DNA from: Psilocybe cubensis
Taxonomy: Eukaryota
DNA length: 64,000 nt
Reading direction: 5' to 3'
Assembly: GCA_017499595.2 (NCBI GenBank)
Contig: CM039000.1
Span: forward strand, 248,001 to 312,000
Shown here: positions 1 to 51,867 of the stretch, piece after piece
How positions within the stretch are numbered: position 1 is the stretch's first letter
Layout: every line of letters begins with the position of its first letter
Notes under the pieces: generated by a model
Told to the model about the DNA's origin: nothing
Database searches by the model: none
Seen by the model: only the letters and a program-made list of their open reading frames with translations
Translations under genes and position numbers: made by a program

Positions 1-1462
1 CTTCACAGGAAACCCTTTTTGTATTGTTGGCTGCCCTGTACGAGTCGGAATGTGAGTATTGCAGGTGGTATTGTGGCCAGAGCTTGTAGCTGATCGCCTC
101 TGCATGCCGTCGTAGCACCAGAGTTACTTCTGCAACAGTTCCTGCAGTTTCTGGAACAGGAAAGGAGAGAGAATACCTCTCAAACTCCATTCCAGTGTGG
201 TTCAAGCACGGAAGTATCATCACACATACCATTATCCACGGCTTCTTCTGGATTTGATGGTCACGATCTCAGCGCTACGTGTATCCGTGAGTCTTTGCAC
301 TGAATCCACCAACAAAATTCTCAAGGAAGGTACCAAATACAGCACCTTATTCATCTCCATCGACATCGTCCACAGGTTCATTGTCATTCCATCGCGTGAA
401 TGAACAGTCTCCTGAGATATCATACCCATGAGACCCTTGTGCTCCCTACATGCAAGATGAGGTATTGGATCAGCATAATTTGCAAAGTGAGCCGGTTCCA
501 CCAGAGTAATAATTCTATGCAAAACTGACCTTACCCGTCAGCGAGAACCCACAGTTCCCCACCGGGTCATACTGACTCTGGTTGGGATGCTCTGCCACAA
601 GACACATTGTGGCCAACAAACCATGTCCCAGTATTTAGGGACAATTATCCTTCTTCCTTCATGGAAGCACCCATTGGCGCCTCAGACAACAAACTGGGCA
701 TCATGCAAGACCCAATGCTCCCACCAGTTCTCGCTTCAATGCCCACATATGAATTTGAAAGGCCGGTGGAGATCCCAACTGGGCAAGTGTCCACATCGTA
801 TGAGTGAATTTCCTCTTGTTTTATCCAATGCTAACCTTCCGTAAATTTACAGACACGGCATGGACACTGCGTCGGTGACTGCTAATGAAGCAGAACGCAG
901 CATCTACGACAACTGGCCTCTGATGCAGTTGTCATTCCTTCCAACCCCGAGCAATCAAGAAGGAAGCAACTATCCAGCCTGTATGTCCTTCAATCCCGTT
1001 GTTTTGGGTCTGTGAACTGACAAATTCTTTTACTCTTTTTCATTTATGTAGTCTCAAATACATTAGGAGAAGGTTTGGATGGTCACAATTTAAGATCCAC
1101 TGACGACAGGCAAATCGTCGCAACTCAGTGCTCCGGGGATCTCCCTGTTGAGCATGGTCACAGCGAACCCAACGTAGATGGAAGGTATGTGTATATCCGC
1201 CCCTTCTCCAGCAGTAAATATTAACTTGGATTGTCCACAAAGGGCATATGAGTCTATGGCAGAGCCGTATGCCAGTGCAGTAACATGGACAAACGATTCC
1301 ATGCAGCTGCCCATCGCACCGGAGCAGCCTACTCCGAGCACGTCCCAAATACAAGGTCACATCCCCAACTGCATGGGGGGCCTCGGCCTCAGCGTCACGC
1401 GTGAACGCAAGAGGTGGCGGAAAGACAAGGGTATTCGGTTTGTCAATCTATCCAGCACCTAG
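1..1462 (+). pseudogene. Orphan family 'gene X', copy 1 (5' end outside window; premature stop)
   Basis: Exons splice collinearly with the intact copy at 43030-44636 (donors near 52, 287, 487, 798, 981, 1185). The last exon ends ...HIPNCMGGLGLSVTRERKRWRKDKGIRFVNLSST*. TGA at 429-431 aligns with TGG (Trp) of copy 4. Confidence 0.7.
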
Positions 1463-2079
1463 ATTGGAAAACCACTACCACGGCGGCGGCGGATAAGCGA
1501 GGCAAAGGAAACAGGATCAAAATCTGTATACCGTAAGCGTTCTGCTCCCTCGCAGGAAAAGAATATAACAAGTACCTGAACACTTTTCACAGATGCGAGA
1601 CATGCTTCAGCGCGGGCCTACAGGGGAGGGGGGCATCGAGTGGTCGAGCCGGTAGACAAAGGTGATGCTTCACCGCTCACCTTTTTCCCCGTACGACCGC
1701 GATATCGATGGGCCGGGTGCGTGGGAGTTCCACGCACCATCTTCGAGGCCGAAATTTAGTCGGATAGCGGTCTTTTTGTAGGATTATGATCAGATCAGGG
1801 CGCAATAAATAGATTTCATCTATACGAGGAAACTGACTTTGTATCTTTGACCCCCAAAATTCCCTACAATACTTGACAAGAAGCATCGCACACTGGTTTT
1901 TTAATTTTTATTAACATGATATCTACCTTCACAAAATCTCAACTTATATTATTGTCTGCACTCTTATTAGATTGATTAGTTCGGTCCTAATCTATGTCCC
2001 AGCCACTCTCAATGATAAACTATGCAGACATTCCGGCGACAAAAGCAAGTTGCAAGTCGGAGGATCGAAAAGAAAGAGG

Positions 2080-6192: not shown

Positions 6193-6915
6193 ATGACCTA
6201 CTACATTTTCGCCAGCAGAACATTTTATCTCTCCTCTAATGAGCCATGGGATGCGACATATACCACAGAGCGAGGAATCACACTTTACAAAACCGAGCCC
6301 AAGTGGACATGGAGGGTCAAACTCCATACCAAAATATTGCGCACCATTCCAACATATTACCCACAGCATACAAGCTCGTACCAGACATCTTTGGGTTATT
6401 CTCTTAGTATTCTTGCGGATATGAAGGAACATTTCTTTCGTCCCACCACGATAAGATATGATGGTAGAGAGCTGACGGTCGACGAGTTCTTCCAAAGAAA
6501 TGCATCCAACATGTGGGGAAGGTACGTCGATTCCATAATTCCATGTCCTCGACAGGTGCAGAGACATATCTCTTGCTCAGAAACTACGTATTCGCTGGCC
6601 ACAATGGAGTAGAGTATGTGTGGAAGATGGAGGTCGACACGGTCAAGGTAATGTTCTTCCTCCTTAAAAATCCCACGAAGGATTCAGACAAAACTCATCT
6701 CCGCCATGTATCGCGTCCAGCTGTTTGTCAACGACTGGAGAAATACCCTCGTTGCCCACTTTCACCAAAGGAATTTGGGGCTCATGCACCAAGCTCGTCC
6801 CGCATACTTGGAGCTTTTTGGAAATTTAGACGACCGTACGGTAGACCAGATTATTGTCACATTCGTCTATGTGGAGAAGTATCGCAGGGAATGTGACAAT
6901 TGGGATGCTATTTGA
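6193..6915 (+). CDS. DUF6593-like protein A (3 exons)
   Basis: Introns about 6522-6580 and 6648-6720. Spliced product MTYYIFASRTFYLSSNEPWDATYTTERGITLYKT...FAGHNGVEYVWK...VAHFH...PAYLEL...DQIIVTFVYVEKYRR fits the basidiomycete DUF6593 pattern (F.G.DG.EY.W; P..LEI......D.I..TFVY.EK.R). Confidence 0.8.
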
Positions 6916-7288: not shown

Positions 7289-8008
7289 AGAGAGAGCTAA
7301 CCTGTGGAGTTGTGTGGTGGTGGTGAACGGCCTACACGCGTGTCTATTCCACACACAATACGGTGAAATCTCATTCGACGGGTCTTTAGTATCTCCTAGT
7401 TGGTAGGAAATCAGTCGGTCTTAGATTCTTGTGATTGCTGATCCTATCCTGGTCGTTTTTCACACAGCAAAGAAGAACAAAGGAACTGCAGCGCCGAGGA
7501 GAACTCTTCTTCTGCTCAATTAGGTCTAGTTCCTGAGCATTGGCGATAGTAACCGATGGGAGTCGACAGATGTAGAATACACAGTTTCGATGCAGTAACA
7601 AGCATTTTTATGCGTCATAGCCAGCACTTGTAAAGAAATGTTGAAGGCCAGCAAACACCAGGCATGCAACTCGGGAATAAGGTCGAACGGAAGAATATAT
7701 AATTCCCCATGAGATTTGAATGTAGTAGCCTAAATAAGAGCGGCGGAAAATGAGAGGAGGTACGTCGCCTGATGGATACCTCATTGTGTGTATGTGTGGG
7801 AGAAAAAAATGATGTGAACAGAAGCAGCGCTGATAGACGAACAGGTGGTGAGTCAGAAGCTGGAGACACGGAACTGGTTAGTGAGCCTGGGACTTTTTGT
7901 GTCTGTCGCCACTCGAATCTGTGTTTTGAGGGGAAGGTTCTGTCCTTACTCTTTTCACACAATTTTGACTCTGTCCCATCTCCCCCATCCTCCTTTTCAT
8001 TTGTCCCA

Positions 8009-9348
8009 ATGTCTGAGCACCAAAACGAATCCTTTGATGTTCCTTCACAGGAAACCCTTTTTGTATTGTTGGCTGCCCTGTACGAGTCGGAATGTGAGTA
8101 TTGCAGGTGACATTGTGGCCAGAGCTTGTAGCTGATCGACTCTGCATGCCGTCGTAGCACCAGAGTTACTTCTGCAACAGTTCCTGCAGTTTCTGGAACA
8201 GGAAAGGAGAGAGAACACCTCTCAAACTCCATTCCAGTGTGGTTCAAGCACGGAAGTATCATCACATTCATCACACATACCATTATCCACGGCTTCTTCT
8301 GGATTTCATGGTCACGATCTCAGCGCTACGTATAACCCAGTGAGTCTTTGCACTGAATTCACCGACAAAATAGTCATACATGATGCGACTCACAGCGCTC
8401 TATTCACCACCATCAACATTGTCCACATTTTCCCCCTTATCCCATCCTGTGGATACACAATCCCCAGTGGTTCCCAGTGTCTGAGCACCAAAAAGAATCC
8501 TTTGATGTTCCTTCACGGGAAGCCCTTTTTGTATTGTTGGCTGCCCTGTACGAGTCGGAATGTGAGTATTGCAGGTGGTATTATGGCCAGAGCTTGTAGC
8601 TGATTGACTCTCTGTGCCATCGTAGCACCAGAGGTATTCCTTCAATGGTTTCTGCAGTTCCTGGAACAGCAAAAGAGAGAATACCTGTCAATCTCCATTC
8701 CGGCATGGTTCAAGCACGGAAATACCATCATACACGTCATTATCCGCGGAGACACGGCATGGGCGCTGCGTTGGTGACTGTTAATGAACCACAACGCGGG
8801 ATGTACGATAACTGGCCTTTGATGCAGTTCTCGTTCCTTCCAACCTCGAGCAATCAAGAAGGAAGCAACCATCCAGTATGTATGTCCTTCAATCCCGTTG
8901 TTTTGGGTCTGTGAACTGACAAATTCTTTTACTCTTTTTCATTTATGTAGTCTCAAATACATTAGGAGAAGGTTTGGATAATCACAACTTGAGATCCACT
9001 GACAACAGGCAAATTGTCGCAACTCAGTGCTCCGGGGATCTCCCTGTTGAGCATGGTCACAGCGAACCCAACGTAGATGGAAGGTATGTGTATATCCGCC
9101 CCCTCTCCAGCAGTAAATGTTAACTTGGATTTTCCACATAGGGCATGCGAGTCCATGACAGAGTCGTATACCAATGCAACGAGTCCATGCAGCTGCCCAT
9201 CGCACCGGAGCAGCATGCTCCGAGCACATCCCACGTACAAGGTCACATCCCCAACTGCATGGGGGGCCTCGGCGTCAGTGTCACGCGTGAACGCAAGAGG
9301 TGGCGGAAAGACAAGGGTATTCGGTTTGTCAATCTATCCAGCACCTAG
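8009..9348 (+). pseudogene. Gene X copy 2, scrambled pseudogene
   Basis: Starts MSEHQNESFDVPSQETLFVLLAALYESE. Exons 1-2 recur at about 8477-8750 and join directly to exon 5 (exon 4 lost). There is a frameshift in the second exon 2 and a ~13-nt deletion near 9178. The C-terminal tail is still present. Confidence 0.75.
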
Positions 9349-10229
9349 ATTGGAAAACCACTACCACGGCGACAGCGGATAAGCGAGGCAAAGGAAACAG
9401 GATCAAAATCTGTATACCGTAAGCGTTCTGCTCCCTCGCAGGTAAAGAATATAACAAGTACCTGAACACTTTTCACAGATGCGAGACATGCTTCAGCGCG
9501 GGCCTACAGGGGAGGGGGGCATCGAGTGGTCGAGCCGGTAGACAAAGGTGATGCTTCACCGCTCACCTTTTCCCCGTACGACCGCGATATCGATGGGCCG
9601 GGTGCGTGGGAGTTCCACGCACCATCTTCGAGGCCGAAATTTAGTCAGATTTTGGTCTTTTGGTAGGACTGTGATCAGATTAGTGCACAATAAACAGATT
9701 TCATTTAAGTTGAAATACCTTTTATCTTTTTAAGTAATACCTTTGAACATCGATAAAGATGGTATACCACATATCTAACCATGTTGCAGGAAACTGAACG
9801 AATATTTTGACCCCAAAAGTTTCCTACAATACTTGACAAGAAGCACTGCACACCGGTTTTTTTAAAAATTCCCTTACCATGATATCCACCTTCACAAATC
9901 ACAAATCACGCACTGTACACTACTATTAAGTTGATTAGTTTGGTTCTAATCTATGTACCAGAACCTCCCAACGACGAACTCTGCAAATATTCCAGTACCA
10001 AAAGCAAATTGCAAATCGCAGGATCGATATTGCTTGGCTGTTCAGACTTCATGATTGCATTTCGCTTGTATATACTGGATAGTCGATCAAACATATGAGG
10101 TTGCTCATGACCACGGTCTATGTAAGTTCGATAATATGCTATACTGGTACTCAGTCGCCTGGTCATAGATCGCCCCTGATTAAGTCCTCACGATTGTCAT
10201 TTACTTATAAAAGACCAAAATGCAATCGG

Positions 10230-11655
10230 GCGCTGTTCAGCTGAAAGACCATGTGCAGAGTAGACGCCGCAATGCATCTGTGAGGGATAGCGGCATAATT
10301 TATGCAAAAGAGTGATGCCATGAACAAGAGAAATAGATTTCCCTGCACTTTTTGGATGTCAATGGCCTCAAATGCCATACGAGAAGGCGGAACGAAGTTT
10401 CAACCCATCGCATCCATCGATGTAAGCAAAACATTGATGGAGGCTGGCATATACATGCTTTTGCCTTGTCGAGATATTCTTGGCTCGGACATGCAGTGTC
10501 AGACTAGAGTAACCTGTGGCTAAACAATTCTTTAGTCCCTCCTAAGCAGAGGGCTAATTATCTCGCGCTGAAGGAGATATCTTCGTGGACATGTGGAGGG
10601 CAAGTATGCGGGGCGAATGGATAGTGTTGACATGGAGTAGGGAGTGAGCAGACAAAAGCAAGAGAAACAACGAGACACGAGGACCAGCGAGAAACGCGTG
10701 GTCGTACTATCGGGCGTTGTTGTGATGAGGTCATGTGCCGTATAGACAGTGATGCAACTCATACAAAGCACCGACGCCATGAGCGAATGAGAGATTTCTC
10801 TGCACTTTTGTATGTCCATGGCCTCAAATACCATGCGAGAAGGGGGAAAGAGGTGTCAACCAATCACACCCATCAATGTAAGCAACGCATGCTGAATCGA
10901 TGCATCGGGGACATTGATGGAGTCTGACTTATAGGTACTTTGCCCCTTCTCGAGGTAATCGTGAATGGTTCTGGCTCGGATATGCAGGGGGTTAGGCTAG
11001 GCAAAAATCTAGGGTAACCGATGGCGTAACACTTCTGTAGTCTTTCCCAGACAGAGAGCTAGGCGTCTCGCGCTGAAGGAGATATCCACGCGCATATGTG
11101 TATGGAAAGTGATCAAAGCGAATGAACAGAGTAGGTGGGGGAATATGGAGTGCGAAGGCATAGGCAAGGCGAATAGCAAAGCACGAGAAGCTGTGGAGAA
11201 CGCGTTGGTGAGGTAAAGTATAAATATATGTGCGCCGAAAGTCCGCATAGAAGCGCACGAAGTTCGTAGTGCACAAGAAAACAGCATACACCGGCGCACA
11301 ACCACCAATAGACATTTAACGGTCAGTGGACAAGAGACCCAGTGTACCAGGAACAGCAAGCACGCGTTGGTGAGGTAAACTGCACTTATATGCGCACCGA
11401 AAAATCCGCAGAATAGCACACACCGGCAAACAACCGACCATAGACGGTCAAAGGATGACGAACAAGAGATTAAGTGTACCAGTGGCAGCGAGGCACGGGT
11501 TGATGAAGTAAACTCAAAATATATGCGCGCCAAAAAGTCCACATAGAAGCGTAGCAGCATTTCAGGGGCACACAGAGAGAAAGACCCGCCCATGGACATC
11601 CAGCGAATGAGGATCAGCGATGATTCTTACACACTCACGTAGCAAAGAAACAAGA
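10230..11655. repeat. Degenerate tandem sub-repeat array, expanded paralog of 2080-2905
   Basis: Two rounds of a ~450-bp unit (about 10240-10620 and 10690-11100), then shorter units with ACGCGTTGGTGAGGTAAA or variants (near 11200, 11362, 11495). Confidence 0.7.
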
Positions 11656-30081: not shown

Positions 30082-31716
30082 ATGGAACACCTTGCAATTT
30101 CGTTCTACAACTTCTTTGAGCTTTCTGGACTGGTTCTATTAGTTTTTGTGTTCTTTACGGCCTTGTTATCGTCGGAAGTCCGTAGAGCAGGGATCTGGTT
30201 CAACCTGCTTTCAGCGGTCATTCTCTCTACCGTCAGTCAGGTGATGCTGCTTGGTCGACAGCTGGGACCGACGCCTGCTAGAGGTATATGCTTCTTGCAG
30301 GCTATCTTGGTTTATCCCCTGACTGTCTTGTGAGTGTAAAATATCCGGACCATCCAAAAATTAAAAAATACTTATCTATCACAATAGATGCTCCCTGGTT
30401 GGAGCGGCCCTTCTTCTTCAAGTTTATATTCAGAGTTGTCCCTCTAATGGTATTGTAGAAATGCTCAAATACTCCTATAATTTCTTTTTACCGTAGGTCT
30501 ATCTTTCCATGATTTTAGCTTGCCAGTCGCGCACGCTGCATAACAAGCATGTTCTCTGGGTGGGTGCCTATGTTCAATTTTCTACGAGGACTGACATTGG
30601 CTCGTGATGGATATCAAGATCAACACCATCCCGATAGTTGTTTCTGTATCTGTGCTCATTCTGTCTTCGCCGTACGTCGTTTTAGATTTCCAATGACCAA
30701 CGTCATTGTTTTAAACGATTACACGGCTTGCGCTCGTGCATATTTTCCAGAAAAATATCTATCAGTAATTATGTTTCCTGTTCATTTTTGACATATTTGC
30801 CTGGAATATAGACTTCGGGGTTGCCTAATCAGGGAACCCCGAAGTCTATATACCTCAAAAATACGTCGAAAACGAACAGGAAACATAACTGCCAATACAT
30901 ATTTTGCTGGCAAATATGTATGAGCGCCAGCGGTGTTACTAAGGTTGGGGCTGCCAATTCATCCATTGCGGTCAGAGACCCATCAGGCATGCGCTGTCAT
31001 TTTGTTTCCAATCTCGTGTGAGTCATCAAAGTGGTCTGGCCGTTTTACCACAAATGGAATCAGAGGATCATAGACCTAATATTGCAATTGGACTTTCCAT
31101 GGTCGGGGGTGTAATGATCATGGTGCTTCAAGGCATGGCCCAACCTATTTCACTGTTTCAGTTACATTAACTGAAATATTTTTCCAGGGCTTGTTAAAAA
31201 AAATTTTTATCGGCAAAGGAGCCAGATGTTCAAAGAGACTATGGACAAGAATAAATTGTCTCCTCGAGTGGTGATACGTGTTCTGATATTCAACGCAATG
31301 ATGACTGTGGTCATGATGTACGTTAATCACGAACAGACCATGTTGTGATCGAGAGATGACAAAAATTCTTCGATTTTTACAGTTGCAGTGCTTCGGTTTG
31401 GTTTATCACCAGTCTTGATGATGCAGCCAAGTTCCGATTTTCAAACTTGACCATGGCTTTGTGTGAGTGTTGGGCTATCTGAACATGAGACCAAAGATTA
31501 AATATAATCTGCTTGACAGTACCGTTTGGAGAGGGTATCATTTTCGGAACACAGAGTGTAAGCCAAGCTGTCTCTGTAACTGAAAAGGTTGCAATTTTAA
31601 TGTCCGTCCCGTCTCAATGATAGGACATTGTGAATGCCTGGCTGTTGTGGCTTAGGATCAAGAAAGGTTCCTCAGGCTCCCTGACGCCGCCCGACAAAGT
31701 TTTAAGATCTTCATGA
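30082..31716 (+). CDS. Multi-exon 7TM GPCR-like membrane protein of a basidiomycete family (possibly disrupted)
   Basis: Hydrophobic exons MEHLAISFYNFFELSG...WFNLL...GICFLQAILVY, RDPSGMRCHF and IRVLIF, ending GIIFGTQ|DIVNAWLLW (FGTQxD..W motif). About 10 introns, one with a GC donor near 31133. The frame across the intron at about 30672-30943 is uncertain. Confidence 0.6.
30721..30936. mobile_element. MITE-like fold-back element inside an intron
   Basis: Two ~100-bp imperfect inverted arms (core TATAGACTTCGGGGTT / AACCCCGAAGTCTATA) around a 12-nt loop. Ends are ACACGG...CGGTGT. The host intron is about 270 nt versus about 55 nt for its neighbours. Confidence 0.7.
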
Positions 31717-36233: not shown

Positions 36234-36949
36234 TCCACCTCAGTACTTATATACGACAGTTGGAAAACGGGAAGTAGTGAGCAGAAAGAACACGAACCTA
36301 GTGCGTCCAAATGCCGTACCACATTCACTAATTTATAGCAGTCTAGTCAGGAACAGGTGACATGAGACTACATTTTGTTGAAGCTTCGACTGTGATCCCT
36401 GGGTACTTCGAATCTTGCCGACAATGGTGGTGAAAGGAGTTGAAGAGTCAAAATACTGGCGAAGTGGGGAGCGGAGTTTCCTATCCGATGAGTCCGACCG
36501 CGTGATTTGGCTCAGGTGGTGGGGGCGAGAGGGTTTCATCTTCCCCTCTGCCGTTTGCCAGCATGGTTTCTGTCATTCTGTTCTACTTTTGAGCCGAATT
36601 AGTCGGGAGACTGGCGTCACTATTTTACCTTTCGTAACCGTTTATTTTTATGCTTCTACTTCGAAATCCTCGCCATCCTGCGGTGTTCGACCAAACATGA
36701 TTCAACGTTTCAACGTTCAACCTCGTTCAACATTTGGCCAGTCCTCTTAAACTCTCTTATCGCTAACTTCCTATGTCACCTTTACAAATTTCGAACCCAT
36801 CTATCCATTTCCTCGGAAGAATTGCCATACTCCCCGCTGTGACAATGAGACAATCCGGTCAACTGTACGGTCGTCATAAAACACCAAGTATGCGGGAAGG
36901 GCGTGGTGCATGAGCCGTAAACGCATATGCAAATTTAGAATGAGGGTAA

Positions 36950-37500
36950 CTGCTCTAGTGACGAACATCTGGCCCTTGACGAGGTATGTTTTCTAAATTT
37001 TCCTCGTGGGAAATTTGAGAAGGAAGGACGTTTACTTTGACCTTTGTGAACCTCCATCTACATCCTAAGAGTCGAGACGTACTCTAATGGAATCCATCTC
37101 TCCATTTTACTTGGACTCAGTTGTCAGAGAGAGAATTCTCGCTCAGTGGTATATGTCTGGTTTTATGGCTCGTCGGAGGCGCCAGTCGTTCCGCTGGTGC
37201 GAAATGAAGCAAGTCATTTTGCACCTTCCTCTGGAGTCGGTATGCAGCGGGGTAATACCACTCGTCGTCAGCGCCACGGAGATAAAATTTTGGAGACGTA
37301 CTCCTTTCCTACGCTTGGGTTGTTTCAGAGGACAAGTTTGTACGAGTGCTTATGCACAGCGCGCACCTAAAATCTGTACTAGGTTCTGTGAATCTATTTT
37401 TACTCTCCTCCTCCTGCTCTCATATTCACCGTCAAGAAGTGGGATCAAAGAGGTCTTCCTACATCGCATTTTCGGCTGTTCCAGGTAGTAGCTTCATGGA
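36950..37500 (+). pseudogene. Possible decayed G-protein alpha-like fragment
   Basis: WYM...KQVILHLPL...SPSR...FLH loosely tracks the G-alpha C-terminal half (W.IYDVGG...QAIIFLAPL...SP..R.F..H). The diagnostic DVGG and NKxD motifs are not retained. Confidence 0.25.
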
Positions 37501-38447
37501 TTTAGTGTTTGATTCTCCTTATTCGCCGCCTATGTGTAGATGTGAAATAGGCTAACTTCCCTCATTGTTAACAACTCAGTGTTGTATATGTTCTTCATCA
37601 GGGCGGAGAAATTAAGAGTCAACGATGTGCCCGAATCGCATATTAAGAGATATAAATATCTTACATTGATCGTGGGGTGAGAATACCGACATATTTTATC
37701 CAAATTTTATCGTTAACCAACGCCCTTCATGGATAATTGACCAACCTTTATATTTTAGGACAAATTTTGGACTATCGACCATACAGAGGACTAAAAATGA
37801 TGACGACACGATCAAACTTCCGACTTCCACCTTTCTTCCGTCCCCAGGGAACAAATTCAATCAACTTGATATATCATTTTAGTGCCGAAAGTCGATATGT
37901 AAATCGTGATTTTGAAGGAAATTAAGTTCATTAGATCTAAAATTCAGTGTACAATATTTCTTACCACCTATTGTAAGAGTTTTGTGAGTTCAGAGTGTTT
38001 GAGATTTGGTTAAATATGTATTATTCCTCCTTTGCTGATGTACCGAAATATATCTCAAAAAGATACCAAGGCATTGCAAGTTATCAATGAAATCTATTAA
38101 TTGAGTGCTAATTCGATCACAATCCTACCAAAATCACACTATCCGACTAAATCTCGACCTCGAAGATGGTGCCAGGAACTCCCACGCACCCGGCCATCGA
38201 TATTGCGTTGTATAAGCCGGAAGAAAAAGGTGAGCAGTGACGCATCGCCTTTATCTACCGGCTCGACCCCTCGACGTCCCCCTCATTCTCTGTAGTCTCT
38301 CCATAGGCCCGCACGGAAGGACGGCTTGCACCTGTGAAAAGTGCCCAGGTACTTGTTAGAATGTTTAATTGCAAGCGATCAGATCACTTACGGTATTCAG
38401 ATTTTAGTATTGCTCTCGTGTACCCGCCAATGTCCCCTTCTGCAACT

Positions 38448-39953
38448 TTAGTCGCTGGTGAGGTTAACAAAGCAGACGCTTTTGTCTGCCCGCCTCCTCT
38501 TGCGCTCACGAGTGACGCTGACGCCGAGGCCCCCCATGCAGTTGGGGATGTGACCTCGGACTTGGGACGTGTTTGCAGTTGGCTGCTCCGATGCGAGGGG
38601 CAGGTCCATGGATGTGTTTGTCCATGCCTCGGTTTTGGTACCATGTGGCTTTTCCATGGATTCATATGCCCTGGAGTGGCTACCCAGGGCATTGGTCAGT
38701 GCATATAGACCACTGTGGTCAGACCATGGTCAGGACTCTTCATTTTGAAAGAAGAGAAGATACTTGACAATGTCACATACTTGTATGCTGAATCCATAGA
38801 AGCCAGGTGCTCCCTGCTATTTATTATGTGAATAATAATACAAGTCAATGTCTACTCCTGGAGGAGGGGAGGATGTACACATACCTTCCATTTGCATTGG
38901 GCTCGCTGCGACTTTGCTCGACAGGGGAATCCCTGGAGCGTGGATCCGTGACAGTTTGCCTATTGTCAGTGGATTCTAAGTGATACTCCAAACCTTCTCC
39001 TAATGTGTTAGAGACTAACAAAAGGGAGAGCAGGGCTTGTTAGTGTACAATCCTACAGTCACCGGATTGCAGGACATACAGGCTGAGTATTTGTTTACAT
39101 CTCGATTGCTTGAGATTGGAGTGCGCGACAACTGCCTATAAGGACGGTTGTCGTAGATGCCAGCTTCCACCTCATTAGTAGTCATCCATGCATCTTGTAT
39201 TCTATATTTGTAGAAATTATGCATGGTCAGTATTTTCAGTGGTATTGATAGTTTATCCATTCTTACGATGGAACCGCCAGTTCTTCCGTAGTCCCCGATA
39301 GCATTGGGAGCTTACATGCCGGAATTGGAGAAGAGAATTCCGACAATGTTGGATCGTGAGTTGAACCCCATCGGCTTTGTGTGTCGTTACCAGACAATGG
39401 TTCCATGAAGGAAGAGGGATAATTGCTTTTAAATACGGGCGCTCTCGATGATGTCCAAGACGAGTTGTGTGGATTAGTGGTAGTCAGCCAAGGGTGAAAG
39501 GGGGTGGGGGAGGAGGGATGCGCGCTTGCTGATAGGTGTGGTTAGCTGTAGGCATAATAAAATTGTTGATGAATCGCCTCACATTGGTGATTACTCTGAT
39601 GGCTCCAATCTGTCTGTGTACAGTGGGATAGAGAATCCCGGGGATGCAACAATTGCATGTCGTTCTCAATTACGGGAGGGAATAAAGACTCTGAGAACGG
39701 AGGCGGATTTGATGGCCATTCTGTTTGTAATGATACTGCGGCGCTCGAATCAGATTCTACTTGAGTATCTTGTGCTAGAAACTGTTCAACCAATAATTTG
39801 GATGCTGCTGCAGCGACGTGAGTGGATCGCTCGCAAGCTTTTTTTAATGCACCGCCCTCAATACTCACAATCAAACTCGAACACGGCGGCAGAGAATTCT
39901 AGAATAAACTCATCCAAGGGGACATCGAACGAAGTGGCTTGCTGATTAGCCAT
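38448..39953 (-). CDS. Gene X copy 3, apparently intact (7 coding exons), unknown function
   Basis: MANQQATSFDVPLDEFILEFSAAVFEFD|SASKLLVEQFL...APVFKSNYPSSFMEP...GIYDNRP...SNTLGEGL...micro-exon...HIPNCMGGLGVSVTRERKRRRADKSVCFVNLTSD*. All junctions are GT-AG and in frame by manual splicing. Confidence 0.75.
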
Positions 39954-42900
39954 GGGGACAAGCACAGAGGTGAGTGGGGGTCAAGTTTGAGACAAAAATG
40001 AGTGAACAGGACAGGAAGAGGGCGTTTCCCTCAAAACATAAACTTGAGTGGCGACGGACATAAAAATCCCAGGCTCATTAACTAGTGCCGAGTCTCCAGC
40101 TTCTGACTGACTCACCATCTAGTCGTGTATCAGCGCTGCTGCTGTTCACATCAACTTTTCTCCCACACATACGCACAATGAGGACGCCTTCAGGCGACAT
40201 AGCTCCTCTTTTTTTCCGCAGCTCGTACCTGGGATAATACGTTGGAACCTCATGGATAGTGGTATAGTCTCTTTCCTAACCACGTTCCCGAGCCGCCTTC
40301 CTAGCGTTAGATAACATTCAACATTCCTTGCCAGTAGGTATTGTCTATGACAAACGAAAGGAACTTGTTACTACATCACGAGTGCATATCCTACGTCTGT
40401 CGACTGCCATCAATCCCGGGCCCTATCGCAAAGGCTCAGGCACTATTCCTAAATGAGAAGACGAACAGTTGGGCTCGGGGTTGGAATTCCATTGTTCCTC
40501 TCTCCTGCGTGAGAACAAGACTGGGTCATGAGCATCAATCACAAAGATTTGGTACCGACTGCATCCTTACCCCACTGAAAATACCATTACACTGTATCAC
40601 TGTGTGTACGAAATGGGCGCGCGCATAGACGGTGCTCCGACACACAACCATCAGCCTAGTTCTCTTCGTCTTATCAGGCTTCTCGACTCGGGCTAACACG
40701 GGTATCAGGTGTCAAACGGAACTTATAAGACCGTCATAGAAGGTAGAAAGGGATGGTGATATTCACTCGAAAGGCATGTACTTCCATAAGATTGACTGCT
40801 TCAAAGGTTTCTTGACATCGTTGACAAAGATAGTTTACATGCCGTCATTGGATCTACGCGCCTATGGAACTATACACACGCTCAATATGTTTGGGCCATC
40901 ATACTGAGATTCTCTGAATGTGATACCGCTATTGTAAGGGGAACATACCAACGAACTCATGTGCTAGTAGCGTTCAATAATTGACCCTCAACCAACTTAA
41001 CGCTATAACTCACCTCCTAGTTGCCAGCATCTGTGCTTTAATGAACTTAACGGCATCTCGTTCTGCGTTTGATCCGCCTTCCCAATCTGTTTCTGAAATC
41101 ATGATGCACCGCAACGGTGTCTCTCGAGAACCAGAACCAAGTAAGTAAAGCTTGTTTTTGAAAAAGAAGATTCCAAGCAGAGAAACTTCGTTTTCATACT
41201 TTTGTCTAGATTTCACTTTGAGACGCGGAAAGACACTTCGGACCTGAAAATAAATGGGTAAGATCCTCTTTCCAATTTTAGTACTAGAAGAAAGTTGGCG
41301 GCCCATAAAAGAAATAGCAAGTCCACGATATCAGATAAATTACATTTAAATCTTAATGCTTAGGTTGATGCACCGAATAAACGAGCAGGCGAGCAGGAAA
41401 GGACTTGGAAAGTGAGAAAGTGCTTCTGTCGGCGTGGCTGTTTGATGACCTGTTGGAGAGGGAACGGTGCCGTCCAGTGCCGTGTGCTGGAATTTTTTAT
41501 TAGGGCCACGCGGTTGGCGCGGAGTTCGTATTAAGTAGTAATTTGATTGCCGGAGGGTTGGCGATGCCCCAGGACGTGGGAAATATGGCTCAATCATGCA
41601 CTCGGTTCTTCTACTACCACCACAGGTCCAGATTGTTCTCCAACGCACTGTGCTGTGTCCCTCGCTGTCATATTCTAACCTCCCAAGTTCATCACACCAT
41701 GCAACACGACGAGACACGACGCGGACCCCAGCGGCGCAATGCACTATGTACATGTTGTACACGTTTAATAGCATTCGACATCATCTCTCTGGCGAAATTT
41801 CAACAATCAACACATCCTCCAGATTCTCATACTCATGCTTGTGCTTTGAATCTTGTATCCTGCAGTCGTCCGGTTACATGGTAATGGTATGGCATGACCA
41901 TGCATCGAGATGACGCCAACGCAAGAATATACAATAAATTCCATTTTCTTGGTCTCTCATGTACCCAGTGCTTGCCTTTGACCTAGATAATCCTTCCCAG
42001 GCTGACAAAACAAAGGTGGTTGTTGGTCTCACTGCCGAAGAGGTATCGATGAAATCATCAAATGATTGACTGAAAGCGTCTCTGTACAATCGCTATATAT
42101 ATTCTGTCCGTCTGTTACATGACACGAATGTTTAATCCAATTGTATCTGAAGAATGCGTGGTATCGGTTAGTGGCTGGTTGGCTGGTTCAGTGTTGAATC
42201 TAATCTTGCAAGATCGGCGTTCATTTAAATCAGTCTCGTATGGAGGCACTGGATTGAATTATAGCGCTTAGTGACATAGTGTGTTTGTTGTTTAACCGCT
42301 ACGACGTTATTTGACAGCCATGCAGATTGAAAGCGTGATCTATGAGGATGAACCTCTAAGGGATAGTGTTAAAAAGTCTTTGTTATTTCTCCATTCATGT
42401 CAATAATTCTCAACTCATCATGGTTCAACTGTTCAACTCAGCCTATGCGAGTTAAAATCATTAATATGAAAATTTACTTTGTACCGCCGACGGTGTGAGG
42501 AGTACTGGTGTCATCAATTCACTTTCTGATTTCAATACCTGCTTGACCTAGTTATTGTTACAGATGGATAATTGTTTGAACAAAGAGTACCATTTATTGA
42601 GAGTGTGTGCAATGAACAGAACCAGTGGTAATAGTAACAAGAAATAGCTTTATTGAGTGCCAATTGATCACAATCCTGCTAAAACCACATTATTCAGCTA
42701 AATTTTGCCCTCGAAGACGCCAATTATAGCGAATTCGAGGCATTGTGGACGTCGTGCATGGAACTCCCACGCATCCGGTCCATCGATATCACGCTATATC
42801 GCGGTTGTATAAGCCGGAAGGAAAAGATGAGCACTGAAGCATCATCATTGTCTACCAGCTCGACCTCTCGACGGCCTTTCCCTTCCTATTAGCGCTACAG

Positions 42901-43029
42901 GCCCTGTGTATTCAAGCTGTACAGGTAAGTTTGTTAGATTGTTTGTTTGTGAGAACACAAATCACTTACGGTATAGAAGATTTCTCTTGGTCTTGCGTAC
43001 CCGCCATCGCCCTCCGTGCCAATGCAACA

Positions 43030-44636
43030 CTAATTGCTAGCAAGGTTGACGAACCGAATGCCCTTGTCCCTCCGCCACCTCTTGCGTTCGCGCGTGACGC
43101 TGACGCTGAGCCCCCCCATACAGTTAGGAACGTGGCCTTCGACTAGGGACATGCTCGGAGCAGGCTGCTCCGGTGCAATGGGCAGGTGCAAGGACTCATT
43201 TGTCCATGCTTCTGCGTTAGGTAGCCCCTCCAGGGCATTGTCCAGTCCGTATGGATCGCTGTGGGCAGGGTATTGTCAGGACTGCTCATGCTGAAATAAG
43301 AGAAGATATCCGATGGCTACATACTTGTTCATTGAATCCGTCTGAGCGCGGTGCTGCCCCGCGCTTTTTGTGTCAAGATCACGAGTTAACATCTACTGCT
43401 GGAGAAGGGGCAGGAATACACATACCTTCCATGTGTGTTAGGCTCGTTCCGACCTTGCTCGACGGGGGGATCCCCGGAGCATTGATCTTCGACCGTATGC
43501 CATTTGTTGGTGGATTTCATGGTGTTATATCCCAAACCTTCTCCAAATGTATTGGAGACTAAAACGTGCAAGGTGGGACTCAGTTTTAAGCCAAAAATCA
43601 TTAGATTACAGGACATACAGGCTGGGTAGTTAATTCCTTCATGATTGCTCAACTCGGAGGTTGGAAGTAACGGCAACTGCATCGGAGGCCAGTTATCGTA
43701 CGTGCCACGTCCTTCTTCATTAACAGTCACCGACGCAACACCCATGTCATGTCTGTAAGTTTACGGATGGTTAGCATTGATTGAAATCATAGGAAATTGA
43801 CTCATACGATGTGGACGCTTGTTCAGTCGGGATCTCTACTGGCATTTCAAATTCATATATAGGCACTGAAGCGCCATATAGTGGTGGCGTCGGGTCTTTC
43901 ATAATGCCCAATTTGTCCTCCGAGGCGTCAATGGGTCCTTCCATGAAGGAAGAACGATAATCGCCCCTAAATACGGGTACGCGGGTATCTGGCCATGGCC
44001 CAGGTAAGTGTTGTGGCAGAGGGCGCCACACAGACTCGGTACAAACTGGGAGAGACGGATGGGCTCCCGCTGACGGATGTGGTCAGTTATATACACAATT
44101 AATACTGTTGCGGAATTGGCACACTTTGGAAACTATGCTGATCCAGTAATTGTCCCTGCATATGGGAAGCAGGGGGATACCATGGGTCGAATAACTGTCC
44201 CTCGCCTTCAGCCGCAGGATGGTATAAAGAGGTACTGGTAGGCAATGTTGATGGATGTGAATATGATGCTGTAATTGATATTTTATTGTATATCTCTTGA
44301 GAGTGATTTCAGTGAAAAGACTTACAAATGAGCGTAGGGCTGATGTCTTGAGCATCAAATTCAGACGATGCCGTGGATAACGGAATATGTGATGAGTTTG
44401 TCGTGCTTGAACCATATTGGAATCGAGGTCGAGAGGTATTCTCCATCGAATCTTGCTCCAGAAATTTTTGTTCAAGAAATAATTCGGGCGCTATGATGGC
44501 ATGAGGAATAGATCAACAAGCTTTATCCACAACACCATTCATGACCCTTACATTCTGATTCAAATAAAGCGGCAAAGAGTCCAGCAGGAAGTTCGTACAA
44601 AGGCACATCGAAGGATGATTCTTGCTGTTCAGACAT
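43030..44636 (-). CDS. Gene X copy 4, apparently intact (8 coding exons, roughly 390 aa), unknown function
   Basis: MSEQQESSFDVPLYELPAGLFAALFESE|SPELFLEQKFLE...VPVFRGDYRSSFMEGP...GTYDNWP...SNTFGEGL...HVPNCMGGLSVSVTRERKRWRRDKGIRFVNLASN*. The frame stays open through seven GT-AG introns. Confidence 0.8.
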
Positions 44637-45805
44637 GGGGACAAATACAGAAGGGAATGGATGCGATGGTGCAAATACAGGATTGTGTAGAAAGGGCAAG
44701 AAGAAAGAAGTCCTTCCCCTCAAAACATAAAACTTGAGTAGCGAACGGACAAAAAAAAATCCCAGGCTCATTAACCAGTTCCCTGTTTCCAGCTTCTGAC
44801 TCACCATGTGTATCAGCGCTGTTGCTGTTCACATCATTTTCTCCCACACACACACACAATGAGGTGTCCATCAGGCCACGTACCTTATTTTCCGCCGCTC
44901 ATTTGTCTACTACATTGGAACCTCATGGCGAGCCTGACCTCGTTCCAGAGTTGTATCCCCTCTTACACATCAAATAAACCTATTACTATTAGATTGCAAC
45001 TGTGTATCAATTTGTCGAATACCATCAATTATTATCGCAAACGCTCAGGCACTATTCCTAAATGAGAAGAAGAACAGCGTTCCTCGGAACTAAAATTCCA
45101 TTGTTCTTCTCTTCTGTGTGAAAACAAGACTGGGACGGGATTAGCAATCACAAGTATCTTATACCGAGTGCTTCTTACCCTCTCAAAGATCCTGAAATTC
45201 CATTGAACTGAATTCTATCCCATTGCGCATATGGAATAGACACACCCGTAGCCAATTTCACTACCACACATGCCAACTCGCTCCAACTTATCAGACTTCT
45301 CGACTCGGGTTGACACGGGTCTCCGGTGTCAAACGGGGTTTATAAGAATGTCATACAAATCAATCGATGGTGATACATTCAAGGGACATGCACCTACCTA
45401 CTAGTGGACGACAAGATAGCAATGCATAAACAGCTTTACAGCTTTCGTCGTATTTTTTTCAAACATAGATGATGTCGTCATTGGATCTACATATATGTGC
45501 GCTTATTTCGAGCACGGCTTCTCAATTTCTCAAAAGCCTGATTGGTTACTTGGCGTTAAGGCATAAGCGAATAATTATATTTTCATATCTATTACATAGG
45601 AAGACTATAAAGCCAATATAAAGGTACCCTTCCTCTCATATGCACCTTTTTCTCAAGTAGTTGGCCCAATTTTTGCATTCAAGGCACGATATGAACTCCG
45701 CGCGCTTGATGGGCAGCGGAGTTTCTGGTTGAGCTTAACCACGTGACTTGAATCAGGAGGCCAGCAGATTTGAACTCAACCAATTTGCCTGGTCTCGAAT
45801 CATCC

Positions 45806-46498
45806 TCAAACATGTCCACGCTCTAGCCTGCGATATCTCTCTGCGTAAACGAATGTGACAATAATCTGATCGACTGTGCGATTGTCCAACTTTCCAAAGA
45901 GCTCCAAGTAGCCGAGCCGTGTTTCATGCATGAATCCATAACGCGTGCGGTGGTAATTTGTAACAAGGGTATTGCTCGAGTCGGCAATGAATAGCTACTT
46001 GGGTGAGTTCTTTTGTTGTATGACCGTACAAAAAAAAATTTACCTTGCATTTGTCTTCCTCCATTGTCCACACGTACTCTACTCCATTGTGGCCGGTGAA
46101 GACGTATTTCCTGCGACAGCCGAGTCAATCACAGACGTTTTCGAAGACAATATTTCGAGTTACCTTCCCCACATATTGGATGGCCTTCTGCGGAAAAAGT
46201 CGTCCACCGACCGCTCTTTACCGTCGTATCTGATAATTGTGGAACGGAAGGTATGGAACTCGATATCCGCCAGCAAACCAAAGGAGTCCTTCAATGAAAC
46301 ATCGGCTGTAGAACTCGTCTCCTGGGCCTGGAAAGACGGAATGGCGCGTAGGATCTTGGTATGGAACTTGGTACTCCACAATGACGACGATTCGGTTTTG
46401 TAAAGACTTAAGCCATGTTCAGTGGTAAACGTCGCTCTCCATGGCTCGTCGGAAGAGAGATACAGATTGTTGCTGATGTCAATTGGGGACGAAGACAT
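45806..46498 (-). CDS. DUF6593-like protein B (3 exons), close paralog of 6193-6915
   Basis: LYLSSDEPWRATFTTEHGLSLYKTE...HTKILRAIP...IRYDG...SNMWGR|KYVFTGHNGVEYVW...YLELFGKLDNRTVDQIIVTFVYAERYRR. Intron positions match protein A. Confidence 0.8.
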
Positions 46499-47413
46499 GT
46501 TTCACCATTCTCTGCAAAATTGGTGGCCTTTTATGCAGAGGGGCACCGCTTTGCCTCTCCCTCAGTCTTGTTGGTGCGTTGTTACACGGGGAGCATCGTA
46601 CTTGTACCGTTGGTGAGCTCCAAACTGTTCGAGTAACCGTCATTTTGGATTTGCACCGCCTCCATGTTTTTTAATGGCTTCTGGCCTGTGCACCGGCGCT
46701 GCGTTTCCTTGAAAATGCTGCTAAGGTACGTTGAGATCGTACATGCATGTACAATCGTATATGTACGGATAATGAGCAAATGCAATTATGGCTGCGAACA
46801 GGAATGGCACCCACAACAAAGGACGCTCAGATGTACCGACATAGAAGGACTGCATACTAAGGATGTCTGTGTTTGCGCTTCCGGGTTGAATTTGTACGAT
46901 TTGACTATTTACCTATCACGCCTTTCTCTTCACTTATGAAGCACCTGAAACTGTCAGACCGGGATGACCGATCCAGTTTTCCGAGGATAGTGAGTCAATT
47001 AACAGTACGCATACCAATGGTTTACTAATTCGCTGACAAGTCAAAGTCCTCACTTGGCGGGGTATGGTTTGAATGAAAACGCACCATCGCCTCGACCCCA
47101 ACTGACACGAACAATTCTTTTTTCGACAGTTATACGTATTGCCACAAATGGCGTCAACGCGCCGAATGCCTTTACGTCGTGCGTGATGATTAAAAACTGA
47201 CTGTTTCTTAAACTGTCCCGGAAACGCCTTCCAGCACAAGCACTTAGGTGAGCAATCTTCAATTTTGGTGGCTCATGTTCGTCATAGCACCTCAGTAATC
47301 CTGAGCCTGAGTGGCCAGGGGTCAAGAGGATAAATTTTGTGATATAATGCCTCACCGCAGACTTTAGTGCGTTCAATTGTTTAGAATATTCTATCTACGA
47401 ACAAAAATTGCTC

Positions 47414-48673: not shown

Positions 48674-49388
48674 CTATCCTAGTGTGGATACAGCATTTGC
48701 AACTAATTCAACTATGTCTTTCCTCTCCATACGCAATTTTTCCATATAAACAAATGTTGCGACAATGATATCCATAAGCTCCTCTTTGTCTACAGATATC
48801 TCCAAGTATGCTGGCCGAGATCTCCGAATAATTCCCCCCTTTGCTTTGTGAAAAACAGCAACAGGATTCCTCCTAGAGTCATTGGAAAAAAGCTGGTGCT
48901 CGATAGTAAATAAGGCACTGGACACTATTTCTTGTGAAATCATCCTGCCCACCTTCGAAGTCGATCCGATTTTCCACATGTATTCTCCCCCAATAGGACT
49001 CATAAATACTCGGTTTCTAAACGGTCCAAGAACAAGTCTAAAATTTGACAGATTAAATTTTACCGCTCTGTGCTTACCTGGGCCCAAGGAAGCTCAACCC
49101 TTTCTTTCTAAAAAATACATTTTTCGGTTGAGAGTCTCGCCCATCGTAAAGTTGGATTTGAGCTTTGTGAACATTCCGGTATTGTATTTCTGCTAAGGTA
49201 GAAAACGAGACATTGGTTGTCGTACTTTCGGAGTAGGGCGGATTTGCGCGGAGGAGTTTGATGGTTTTGACTTCTTCTGTCCAGGATGGCGGGGGTTCCG
49301 TTTTGTATACGATATAGCCTTCGCTAGTCATATATGAGGCATTCCACGGAATCTCTGAAGATAGGTATAACCTCTGGGAAGTAGTCAT
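48674..49388 (-). CDS. DUF6593-like protein C (3 exons)
   Basis: LYLSSEIPWNASYMTSEGYIVYKTE...FMSPIGGEYMWK|LFSND...VAVFH...RPAYLEI...MDIIVATFVYMEKLR. Same two intron positions as A and B. Confidence 0.8.
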
Positions 49389-50163
49389 GGGTATAAGACT
49401 AAGAATATGCAATCACATAGTCCCATCCCTTTACCATTAAATACCTTTGCGAAGAACCATATCTATTTCTTGCCCAGAGATAGCTGTTTCACTGCAGTCT
49501 ATAACTGCCAGGCTCCAAAGCAGATCTCTATAATTAACTATATAACTTTCAATATTTGTCAAGTGATCTACTCCAACGTCATCAGTAGCAACGTTTTGTG
49601 GTGTGGGAAGTCCGAACTGGAAACTTGCAGCCTGCGATGAAAACGTGCGGTCATGGGCAGTCTCGTACCCATCCGTTATTATATATTTCGCACGATCCTT
49701 CGGCATTGCAGTCACGAATGCGCTGTGCCACGGTATAGGTGTCTTTCGGGTACGTACCAGGGTCATAGTTTGGCAATAAGTTCTCTGGTGGCTTATTTGC
49801 TTTTTACATGATACATGTCTGGGTATTGGATGTTGGATTTGCGACGACCAATCTGTATATTGTATCGACTAGGCAAGTATCCTCATTGGGTGAGAACCCC
49901 GAGTCTTGGACACCGACGGGAAAATGTTTTACTGTTCGTGTAGGACGAAGCCTTCCCCAACTTAGTGCCGAGTTAATTTACACAGATTAAATTTTACGAA
50001 ATCTTGTGGAGCCGGACCGCTATGACAGCCAACAGACAGCCAGGTGAGTACATCATACCTGCCAACACAATTGAATAATTGATAAGATGAAAACGCGATC
50101 GATAAAAACGCGTATTTCTCTGCCTGTGTATTGTTCCTCCTTGTACGATACTCCTACAACACC

Positions 50164-51867
50164 ATGGACCCGATAGTAAGTGACTGATCCATCGCGATTG
50201 TGGATGTGATGCTTGTGGTCATGTACTCGAAGCCATAGCCTAACTCCAATTCTATTGAACAGCCTACCCAAGAAGTGAACAGCGTCCTGAGGGCTCATGT
50301 TTTCAATATGATGCCCATTCGACTACTACAGCTTCCAGAAATGAAACTCATCGAAAGGGGCGACGTCTTCAAGCATCTTCTTCCTAAAATGTCTGATATC
50401 ACCGAGGCTTGGATAGAGGACAGGATAAAATCGACGAAATGGGAAAGTGTTGCATTTGTTTCGGGAAAGATCGACAGGCGAAAGCGAGTAATCGAGGAGG
50501 CCGTCACGGAGCGTGCACAGTACGCAATCCTGTCACATACCTGGCTGTTGGAAGAAAGGGAAATTACATACGGCGATTGGGTATCCCAGCAAAACCTTTC
50601 TGGAGCTGGATATGCGAAGTTGAAAAACTTCTGCAAGGTGGCTTATCACGACCACGGGATGACACTTGCATGGCTTGATACGCTCTGCATAAATAAGGAC
50701 AGCACCTCTGAACTCGACGAATCTATACGTTCCATGTACCGTTGGTATCTTCACTCTGCAATCTGTATCATCATACTTGCGGATACATCCATCATCGACG
50801 ATGTACCCAAGGATCGTTGGTTCACCCGTGGTTGGACTCTTCAGGAACTTTTGGCCCCCAGTCGATTAAAGTTTTATTCAAAGGATTGGAAACCACTTTT
50901 GCAGGGCCATAACGATAAAGCATATGTTGAGAAGGATGAGGACAATAGTGATGGCGACGACAGCAATAGCGACGACAGCACCAGCGCAGACGGAAACAAT
51001 TTATCAGTGTTTGGACCCCTTATTGAGCAGGCGACGGGAATATCTCTCAACGAGTTACGGACTTTTGATCCAGCTGGAACTCGGAGGAACATCCCTACGC
51101 GGATGATGTGGGCGTCAAAAAGAGTTACGACACGCGAAGAGGACTCTGCATATTGCCTCATGGGCATTTTTGGTGTCAGCTTTTCGATTGCCTATGGGGA
51201 GGGTAGAGAGCGCGCCTTCTTTCGGCTTCTGGAGGCCATTATGACAACCTACCGGGATATTCTAGCAATTCTAGACTGGTCAGGAAAGCCGATAGGGCAT
51301 GACGTGCACGCAACGTCCCTTCTTCCGTCAGGGCCAGAGTGCTACAAGCTTGCTCCAGGGGATAAAAGATTGGAATCCTTCGCATGGTACGACATACAAG
51401 ATTACGTACCGTTCTCCTTTGCGCCAAAGGAGCCAATGACCCTAACTCACCTCGGAATTCGCATTGATCTGTACTGCGTGCCTGCCACAGTACATTCCTT
51501 TGAGGAAAAAGATGGAATTTATACAGTTTATATGAAATGTGGCGCCCGTTTTTGCGAGGAACCCATTGCCATAAACGTCTACCCCCACACCTACGCCATG
51601 TTCGACGAGGACGAGGATGAAGGATACGGCAAAGAATTCATGTTTGGTATATGGACATTTGAAAGGGACAGTCAAGACACCGTATACATCCCTAATGAGC
51701 CTTGTCGAGTATTCCTGTTGGAGTCTACAGACCCATATCAGCCCATTGAGATGCCTCGACTCTGGCATAAAGTCGACACACCTGATCCCCTCAGAATATC
51801 GCCCGACTCGCCATGGGAAGATGACTGGGACAAGGAGAAAATATCGATAAAAACCTTCATTCTTTGA
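50164..51867 (+). CDS. Stand-alone HET (heterokaryon incompatibility, PF06985-type) domain protein
   Basis: Short first exon MDPI, then intron 50176-50262 in frame. Motifs MPIRLL, YAILSHTW, W.DTLCINK, ELDESIRSMYRWY, WFTRGWTLQELLAP, R.TTREED.AYCLMGIFGV and IAYGEG. Confidence 0.92.

Follow-up and report, generated by a model that had tools for sequence, protein, structure and literature searches.

Orphan multicopy genes whose disordered products carry a short conserved motif are a general kind in fungi, and the wtf drivers of fission yeasts, another multicopy group, encode proteins with a membrane topology. Short motifs of two further systems are relevant here. The short consensus of RVxF proteins that dock on protein phosphatase 1 (PP1, Glc7), [RK]x0-1[VI]{P}[FW], is present in about 25% of proteins, according to an excerpt of PMC4794898, and residues R13, K14, R17, and K18 of the SUMO E2 enzyme Ubc9 are described in part of PMC3012696 as binding Uba2. 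The present analysis concerns a gene family found in a 64,000-nucleotide stretch of the Psilocybe cubensis genome (contig CM039000.1, positions 248,001 to 312,000; G000:C3:248001-312000), hereafter the window. A first-pass annotation of the window had described four paralogs, here called W1 to W4, as an orphan family with a conserved C-terminal tail, and had proposed that they recruit PP1 in the nucleus and turn over like conflict genes. The family appears to be real, apparently undescribed, and restricted to one species, homologs so far coming only from P. cubensis. With a probability of roughly 0.45, its members would be disordered nuclear adaptors in which the tail combines an import signal with a docking module.

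Family Census and Gene Models

Searches of the 46.6-Mb genome (G000, 21 contigs) recovered 16 family loci, six on contig C3, eight on C7, and two on C10, with 15 tail-bearing copies; all these counts are lower bounds. The four window copies lie where the first-pass annotation had placed them, and the tail pattern quoted for them is exact in all four, whereas a family of four copies is too small and two of the four, W1 and W2, are not open. The window copies with their exons and tails are as follows.

1..1462, plus strand: W1; 3' part matched by contigs of sequencing runs X4 and X5
8009..9348, plus strand: W2; internal duplication (8004-8264 resembling 8472-8730), deletion, and frame shift ahead of the tail
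38448..39953, minus strand: W3, open model of 374 residues; family intron 2 lost by deletion
39953-39869, 39807-39583, 39528-39267, 39201-39080, 39014-38885, 38816-38781, 38712-38448, minus strand: W3 exons
38451..38555, minus strand: W3 conserved tail of 35 residues
43030..44636, minus strand: W4, open model of 396 residues
44636-44552, 44490-44326, 44268-44125, 44069-43808, 43752-43619, 43558-43426, 43363-43325, 43258-43030, minus strand: W4 exons
43033..43137, minus strand: W4 conserved tail of 35 residues

In an alignment of 10 loci, up to seven coding introns of 47-82 nt occupy common positions with phases 1,1,1,2,1,2,2, in agreement with the shared exon structure claimed earlier. Open models were obtained for 10 of the 16 loci (298-396 residues). 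The six broken loci are W1 (one in-frame stop in exon 3, with the ATG 34 bases upstream of the window start), W2 (in which the deletion removes ~440 bases), C7h (frame shift and partial triplication), C7e (internal deletion), C10b (5' truncation), and C7b, a fragment that keeps both flanks but not the start or the tail.

Because contigs C3, C7, and C10 begin with telomere repeats, the loci can be placed 96-345 kb from the chromosome ends on three chromosome arms. Self-comparison of the window shows that its four copies sit within bigger duplicated blocks. The homology ends of duplicated copies are staggered, and neither terminal inverted repeats nor sharp common ends were found (0 of 14 copies with a minus-strand match between the flanks). 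The unit is therefore best regarded as a gene with its control regions copied by segmental duplication, and not as a defined transposon.

A profile of the last exon retrieved 12 proteins and a full-length profile 10, all from P. cubensis; HMMER searches over 1.84 billion representatives gave nine at E up to 0.001, of which five had already been found and four were new, again all from P. cubensis. The libraries searched presumably include proteomes of related gilled mushrooms. No characterized family was matched in these profile searches. None of 11 last exons matched Pfam, and no Pfam match was precomputed for the full proteins; ESM Atlas gave no usable match to the whole protein or the tail, and among metagenome contigs neither the last exon nor the Uba2 domain had a relative. 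At the level of titles and abstract openings, the papers returned by literature searches include no description of the family, although supplementary gene lists could name the loci. Three of the 12 public models (P0009-P0011, two of them window copies) splice out part of the conserved tail, so the tail motif is hidden from proteome searches.

The Tail and Its Candidate Partners

The proteins consist of two contrasting parts. The body has a net charge of -23 to -40, contains only 0-6 lysines, is rich in S/P/T, and comprises 16-18% F/W/Y/L; the last 40 residues carry +5 or +6. AlphaFold2 on a 12-row alignment gave a mean predicted local distance difference test (pLDDT) score of 38.6 with no residue above 70. 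The protein is strongly acidic and lysine-poor, and is predicted to be disordered, without a fold. Of the 37 tail columns, 18 are invariant in all 15 copies, forming the blocks G-H-x-P-x-C-M-x-G and S-V-T-R-E-R-K, one further R, and F-V-N-L; the terminal FVNL stands at a constant distance from the C-terminus.

Selection was measured as omega (dN/dS) with a codon model written for this analysis on nine models (eight open copies and W1; C3x and C3y were left out), and the values are approximate because branch lengths were scaled from one tree despite recombination. Omega is 0.17 for the tail, 0.39 for exon 1, and 0.65-0.73 for the remaining exons. The gain in twice the log-likelihood difference (2dL) is 53.8 for the tail; for the body, with omega 0.65 (2dL 40.5), constraint is weak. 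Over all 15 tails, in the frame read by the first-pass annotation, omega is 0.14 (2dL 76) with no stops. Purifying selection on the tail, previously suggested from synonymous changes, is therefore supported beyond chance, with values well below 1. Nearly all the strong constraint is in the last 34 residues. The other five frames across the tail contain 5-50 stops each. Antisense coding frames over the tail were rejected on this count; the one that gave omega 0.29 has its third positions in common with the sense frame and contains 5 stops.

The basic cluster of the tail had been likened to a nuclear localization signal (NLS). The pattern K[KR]x[KR], the consensus of the classical monopartite NLS, is found in 13 of the 15 tails, in keeping with that proposal. 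Two other tail patterns were considered and set aside: the mitogen-activated protein kinase (MAPK) D-motif pattern fits all 15 tails and also 22-30% of shuffled ones, which makes it uninformative, and a likeness to a WetA-like FVNF motif was supported by no match.

The proposal that the tail docks on PP1 was drawn from the window copies. As a targeting subunit of PP1 (Glc7), family-wide or within the window clade only, the protein would use an RVxF motif, and the five tails that match the short consensus (the four window copies and C3y) carry it where such motifs are expected, after basic residues and in a region of pLDDT below 70 throughout, with an invariant Phe. The other 10 of the 15 tails fail this consensus and none fits the extended one: the nine from C7 and C10 carry Phe where V or I is expected, and in C3x this residue is missing. 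The V/I column is among the most variable of the tail (F in nine, I in four, V in one, a gap in one), while V-N-L past the Phe is invariant. Besides being common among proteins, the short pattern arises in 5-11% of shuffled tails. The K-x-[IV]-x-F pattern is thus one clade's view and is not kept across the homologs; taken over the whole family, PP1 docking is refuted as the common function, and a PP1 role of either scope is very unlikely.

Another candidate partner emerged from structure-database searches. A last-exon profile against PDB returned 14 matches, 13 of them to Ubc9 residues ~1-27 (E 0.17-1.7), and with the W1 tail alone all 24 matches were named Ubc9, UBE2I, or Ube2i2. The best E of the latter, 0.015, is helped by a second weak stretch, and the domain-level E is 1.1-2.7 in the five matches listed. 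The N-terminus of the genome's own Ubc9 (L077) scored 11.3 bits (P 1.2e-5), a value reached by none of 20,000 shuffles; for a proteome that we assume to hold ~13,000 proteins this corresponds to E near 0.15. In the alignment, all 15 tails match Ubc9 E12, R13, K14, R17, and F24, 11 match K18 and D19, and nine match F22; Q15 and W16 recur in separate clades of tails. The matched residues include the binders of Uba2 (SUMO E1), R13, K14, R17, and K18, as given in the relevant part of PMC3012696. These observations allow a SUMO decoy to be envisaged, in which the tail, captured from or mimicking the Ubc9 N-terminal helix, would compete for the ubiquitin-fold domain of the E1 (Uba2) or for SUMO. However, the PDB matches all belong to one protein family with E near 1, a profile of all 15 tails found no PDB match at E up to 10, and basic clusters readily match one another. 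At the DNA level the likeness to Ubc9 is no better than the protein match (79-1082 of 2000 recodings scored as high). Nine of 15 copies have lost the W16 codon, which moves their spacing one codon out of step with Ubc9. Nothing in Ubc9 corresponds to the invariant GH.P.C, SVTR, and VNL, and the tails lack the beta1-beta2 loop. A complex predicted for the W1 tail and the ubiquitin-fold domain of the genome's own Uba2 scored 0.04 against a mark of 0.34, a result that weighs neither for nor against the idea. SIM-like (SUMO-interacting motif) patterns occur in three of nine models and SUMO acceptor sites in none of nine. A decoy of this type is accordingly a quite improbable reading. An extended form of it is equally a long shot: newborn SUMO-pathway decoys, each a piece or mimic of the Ubc9 helix ending an acidic disordered protein, might have been amplified to 16 loci and damp the nuclear E1-E2 hand-over, checked by the conserved 3' untranslated region (3'UTR) intron, hairpins, and antisense RNA discussed below, and possibly serving as a weapon between nuclei or spores.

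Recombination and the Question of Genetic Conflict

Three parts of the gene yield conflicting trees, and approximately unbiased (AU) tests reject the trees of other parts in five of six comparisons. Identity between C7f and C7g along the gene is 98/76/94%. Together these results indicate non-allelic exchange (gene conversion) among copies. The earlier description of an apparently undescribed, spliced family of fast turnover with a constrained tail is supported.

The exchange, and the count of 16 loci with six broken, also speak for a conflict gene, be it a meiotic driver, a suppressor, or an allorecognition factor; such a gene would have a toxic or dosage-sensitive product, turnover by an arms race, and antisense and 3'UTR elements that guard the carrier. 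A second point in its favor is that parts of W3 exist in two versions in runs X2 and X3, which are DNA. One is identical to the window and the other shows 23 differences over 279 positions, or 18 plus 5 gaps over 208 (~8-9%), while the long X2/X3 contigs beside the W3 versions carry 13-29 differences in 7.3 kb. X5 carries a W3 version with 13 differences over 38885-39017. Among the 40 rows listed, 12 were classed for W3 (7 replacement, 4 silent, 1 intronic) and 4 for W4 (1 replacement, 2 silent, 1 intronic). The divergent version is probably a deep allele, depth not being copy number, and ordinary population mixing could also give rise to such an allele. In addition, a HET-domain gene lies 5.6 kb from W4.

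Several results speak the other way. No positive selection was detected, M2a being equal to M1a on 183 strict columns, with no site class at omega above 1; with all 369 columns M2a fits better (p=0.0096), its extra class having omega 1.0. None of the nine models contains a membrane segment (top 19-residue hydropathy 0.5-1.1), and on C7 and C10 no coding gene was duplicated along with the family. In the window the forkhead core GTAAAYA occurs about as often as chance predicts (13 vs 16), and intron 1 of the four window copies contains no FLEX-type site, although a basidiomycete may use another factor. What stands of the conflict-gene idea is gene conversion and a divergent, allele-like haplotype; positive selection, a membrane segment, and a fixed partner gene do not, and the idea retains a small share of probability, well on the unlikely side.

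Non-Coding Flanks and Transcripts

Between the window clade and the C7/C10 clade, identity is 0.60 in intron cores, 0.65 in the coding sequence, and 0.75 in the tail, against 0.72 upstream and 0.80 in the stretch 150-400 nt past the stop. The flanks, though non-coding, have changed less than the coding body. All 15 tail-bearing copies have a 3'UTR intron donor 50-70 nt past the stop. The elements of the window copies are listed here, the names of the motifs in the W3 upstream region being those we take to apply.

1533..1809, plus strand: W1 3'UTR intron (1533-1592), hairpins (1661-1681 and 1717-1737), and AATAAA (1803-1809)
38169..38249, minus strand: W3 3'UTR hairpins A (38229-38249) and B (38169-38189)
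38332..38391, minus strand: W3 3'UTR intron, 56 nt past the stop, predicted and also skipped in one X5 contig
39954..40848, minus strand: W3 conserved upstream region with TGAGTCA (40107-40114), a TATA-like stretch (40717-40728), and a conserved block (40839-40848)
42649..42846, minus strand: W4 hairpins A (42826-42846) and B (42754-42774) and AATAAA (42649-42655)
42917..42969, minus strand: W4 3'UTR intron, 60 nt past the stop, predicted from sequence
42925..42976, plus strand: antisense-transcript intron over the W4 3' end, one X5 contig; TATA-like stretch upstream on the plus strand, ~42807-42817
44637..45481, minus strand: W4 conserved upstream region

All 16 loci carry hairpin B, and with up to 2 mismatches allowed it turns up in no other place (a reversed control gave 1). 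Across 22 named pairs, 95.5% of cells pair and two pairs change on both sides, and one of 500 shuffles scored equally high; the covariation term is near zero (-0.24), and W3 disrupts two pairs of hairpin B and one of hairpin A. In stem B, a change on one side mostly leaves a G-U pair in the sense strand, and this points to an RNA element more than to a DNA palindrome. Rfam gave no match at E up to 1 in window positions 37000-47000.

Spliced transcripts are shown to exist for at least W3. RNA-like contigs of X5 skip its coding introns 38884-38817 and 38780-38713 at the predicted sites, one contig each, and another skips the 3'UTR intron (CT..AC on the plus strand), so that three predicted introns are spliced out in these contigs. 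One X5 contig reads unspliced across the W3 tail (38390-38552), which disfavors the public model P0010, in which the tail is spliced out. Contigs of X4 and X5 do not reach the 5' parts of W3 or the greater part of W4, a gap that is given no weight here. At W4, positions 42925-42976 are missing from one X5 contig, the skipped stretch being bounded by GT..AG on the plus strand, antisense to the gene, with 79 letters on the shorter side; the spliced antisense transcript has no conserved open reading frame (ORF). An X4 contig assigned to W1 (with 19 differences to W4 and 7 to W3, as W1 itself shows) lacks 52 bases, a skip that fits a homologous antisense intron and also a sense GT..AG. Judging by record lengths, the 60-nt sense intron is probably missing from one W1 contig of X5.

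In Cryptococcus, 3'UTR introns are the least conserved intron class, and 98-99% of intron-retention events are not sensitive to nonsense-mediated decay (NMD) (PMC5006051). In Neurospora, introns near the stop are counted among NMD signals (PMC7746235); the relevance of this to mushrooms is presumptive.

Such conservation raises the question of whether a regulatory RNA locus, or a non-autonomous mobile unit, is the main identity of the unit, with the protein as secondary cargo. Flanks that exceed the coding body in conservation, the retention of flanks at C7b without start and tail, antisense splicing at W4 with the compatible 52-nt skip at W1, and the transposon genes (KDZ, TET/JBP) that two of the three clusters contain would all fit. 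This reading does not explain why the tail is constrained to omega 0.14 in one frame only or why seven in-phase introns are kept, and the absence of terminal inverted repeats, common sharp ends, and an Rfam match argues against it. Antisense splice signals are found in only five of the 15 copies, and the W1 skip also fits the sense strand. A primarily RNA or mobile identity is therefore possible but unlikely.

A Proposed Mechanism

The adaptor reading favored here would work as follows. The basic core of the tail (ERK..RK) would import the protein into the nucleus or bind an acidic surface, while the invariant blocks on either side of it, GHxPxCMxG, SVT, and terminal FVNL, may dock on a single partner conserved in the host. 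The body, acidic and aromatic, can be likened to acidic activation domains and could act as a tolerant activation or competitor region. Expression might be kept low or stage-specific through the promoter blocks, the 3'UTR intron, the hairpins, and antisense transcription. Copies would have spread by segmental duplication in distal arms, been reshuffled by gene conversion, and often been lost.

The following points weigh against this reading. About 60-70% of the well-aligned sites fit neutrality, so much of the body may be mere spacer. The NLS-like pattern arises in 5-10% of shuffled tails and is absent in the two most divergent copies. The rows in the hairpin test are related, which was uncontrolled, and the structure was drawn from the same sequences; moreover, change per column in stem B (0.75) is about as frequent as in the surrounding block (0.83). 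Finally, that X4 and X5 are RNA is a guess made by software, and each spliced joint was seen in a single contig. The probability beyond the readings discussed is left to readings not considered.

The family offers a clean case in which no relative is detectable outside one mushroom species, yet strong selection acts on a 34-residue module and on RNA-level elements. Should the SUMO E1 or a meiotic factor prove to be its partner, the family would represent an unusual host family built on a core-enzyme surface, or a mushroom conflict gene.

Neighboring Genes and Other Features

The HET-domain gene near W4 is a single-frame ORF of 542 residues at window 50239-51867 (plus strand; E 2.3e-9). Genes of DUF6593 are interleaved with the family in the window at 6124-6912 (plus), 36838-37239 (minus), 45826-46501 (minus), and 48677-49412 (minus); X4 and X5 contigs show splicing of the copy at 45797-46989. 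DUF6593 was rejected as a fixed partner, being found only beside window copies, its 12 matches all falling outside the C7 and C10 clusters. Window 4923-5150 matches the upstream region of the divergent C3y at 87% and precedes a DUF6593 gene, the family gene being absent there. Repeats downstream of W1 and W2 (2166-2793 and 10225-11551) are partly nested, and the single ORF scanned in them had no Pfam match. A 220-bp palindromic element at window 30718-30937, resembling a miniature inverted-repeat transposable element (MITE), recurs at G000:C7:285769-285988 in both orientations (82%).

A TET/JBP dioxygenase and a KDZ transposase adjoin the truncated C10b (L044:194-6463; G000:C10:122194-128463), and a further KDZ transposase lies within the C7 cluster (L032:3651-5206). 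Upstream of C7 copies recurs a further non-coding block, at most 1.4 kb long, which contains TATA-like and CT-rich sequence but no common ORF:

G000:C7:328480-329861, 332462-333841, 340785-341985, 281212-282402, 297082-297913: repeated non-coding block upstream of C7 copies

At G000:C7:288196-291996 (L034), two related single-frame ORFs of 632 and 563 residues (31% identical), one of them F-box-like, form a head-to-head-out pair. Elsewhere, G000:C8:553401-655102 and C17:8121-74620 (L049-L067, L070) hold a long tandem array with one E2 gene per ~8.4-kb unit, whose near-identical copies make up 20 of 45 ubiquitin-conjugating-enzyme matches.

Comparison with Known Systems

PP1-interacting proteins with an RVxF motif, in the section of PMC4794898 consulted, resemble the family in their disorder and, in five of 15 copies, in basic residues followed by a hydrophobic-x-Phe. 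They differ in that the family does not conserve RVxF, its invariant residues lying past the Phe and upstream.

With the SUMO E2 Ubc9 N-terminal helix (as covered in part of PMC3012696), the tail shows a weak likeness in the pattern ERK.WRKD..F.F, in which the E1-binding R13, K14, R17, and K18 align in 15, 15, 15, and 11 of 15 tails, nine of them with the spacing shifted by a codon; the family differs in having no UBC fold, catalytic Cys, or beta1-beta2 loop, and the likeness has E near 1.

The wtf drivers of fission yeasts, as portrayed in an extract of PMC9562144, are likewise multi-exon and multicopy, with pseudogenes and non-allelic gene conversion. In contrast, the family shows no sequence likeness to them, no FLEX site in intron 1 of the window copies such as marks the second, meiosis-specific start of wtf genes, and no membrane segment, and a poison/antidote transcript pair is unsupported by the family data.

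The closest resemblance in overall form is to orphan multicopy fungal genes, with which the family shares the absence of homologs beyond the species, distal clusters, birth and death of copies, and a weakly constrained disordered body. It is set apart from them by a strongly constrained tail of 34 residues and by flanks, a 3'UTR intron, and a hairpin that are more conserved than the body.

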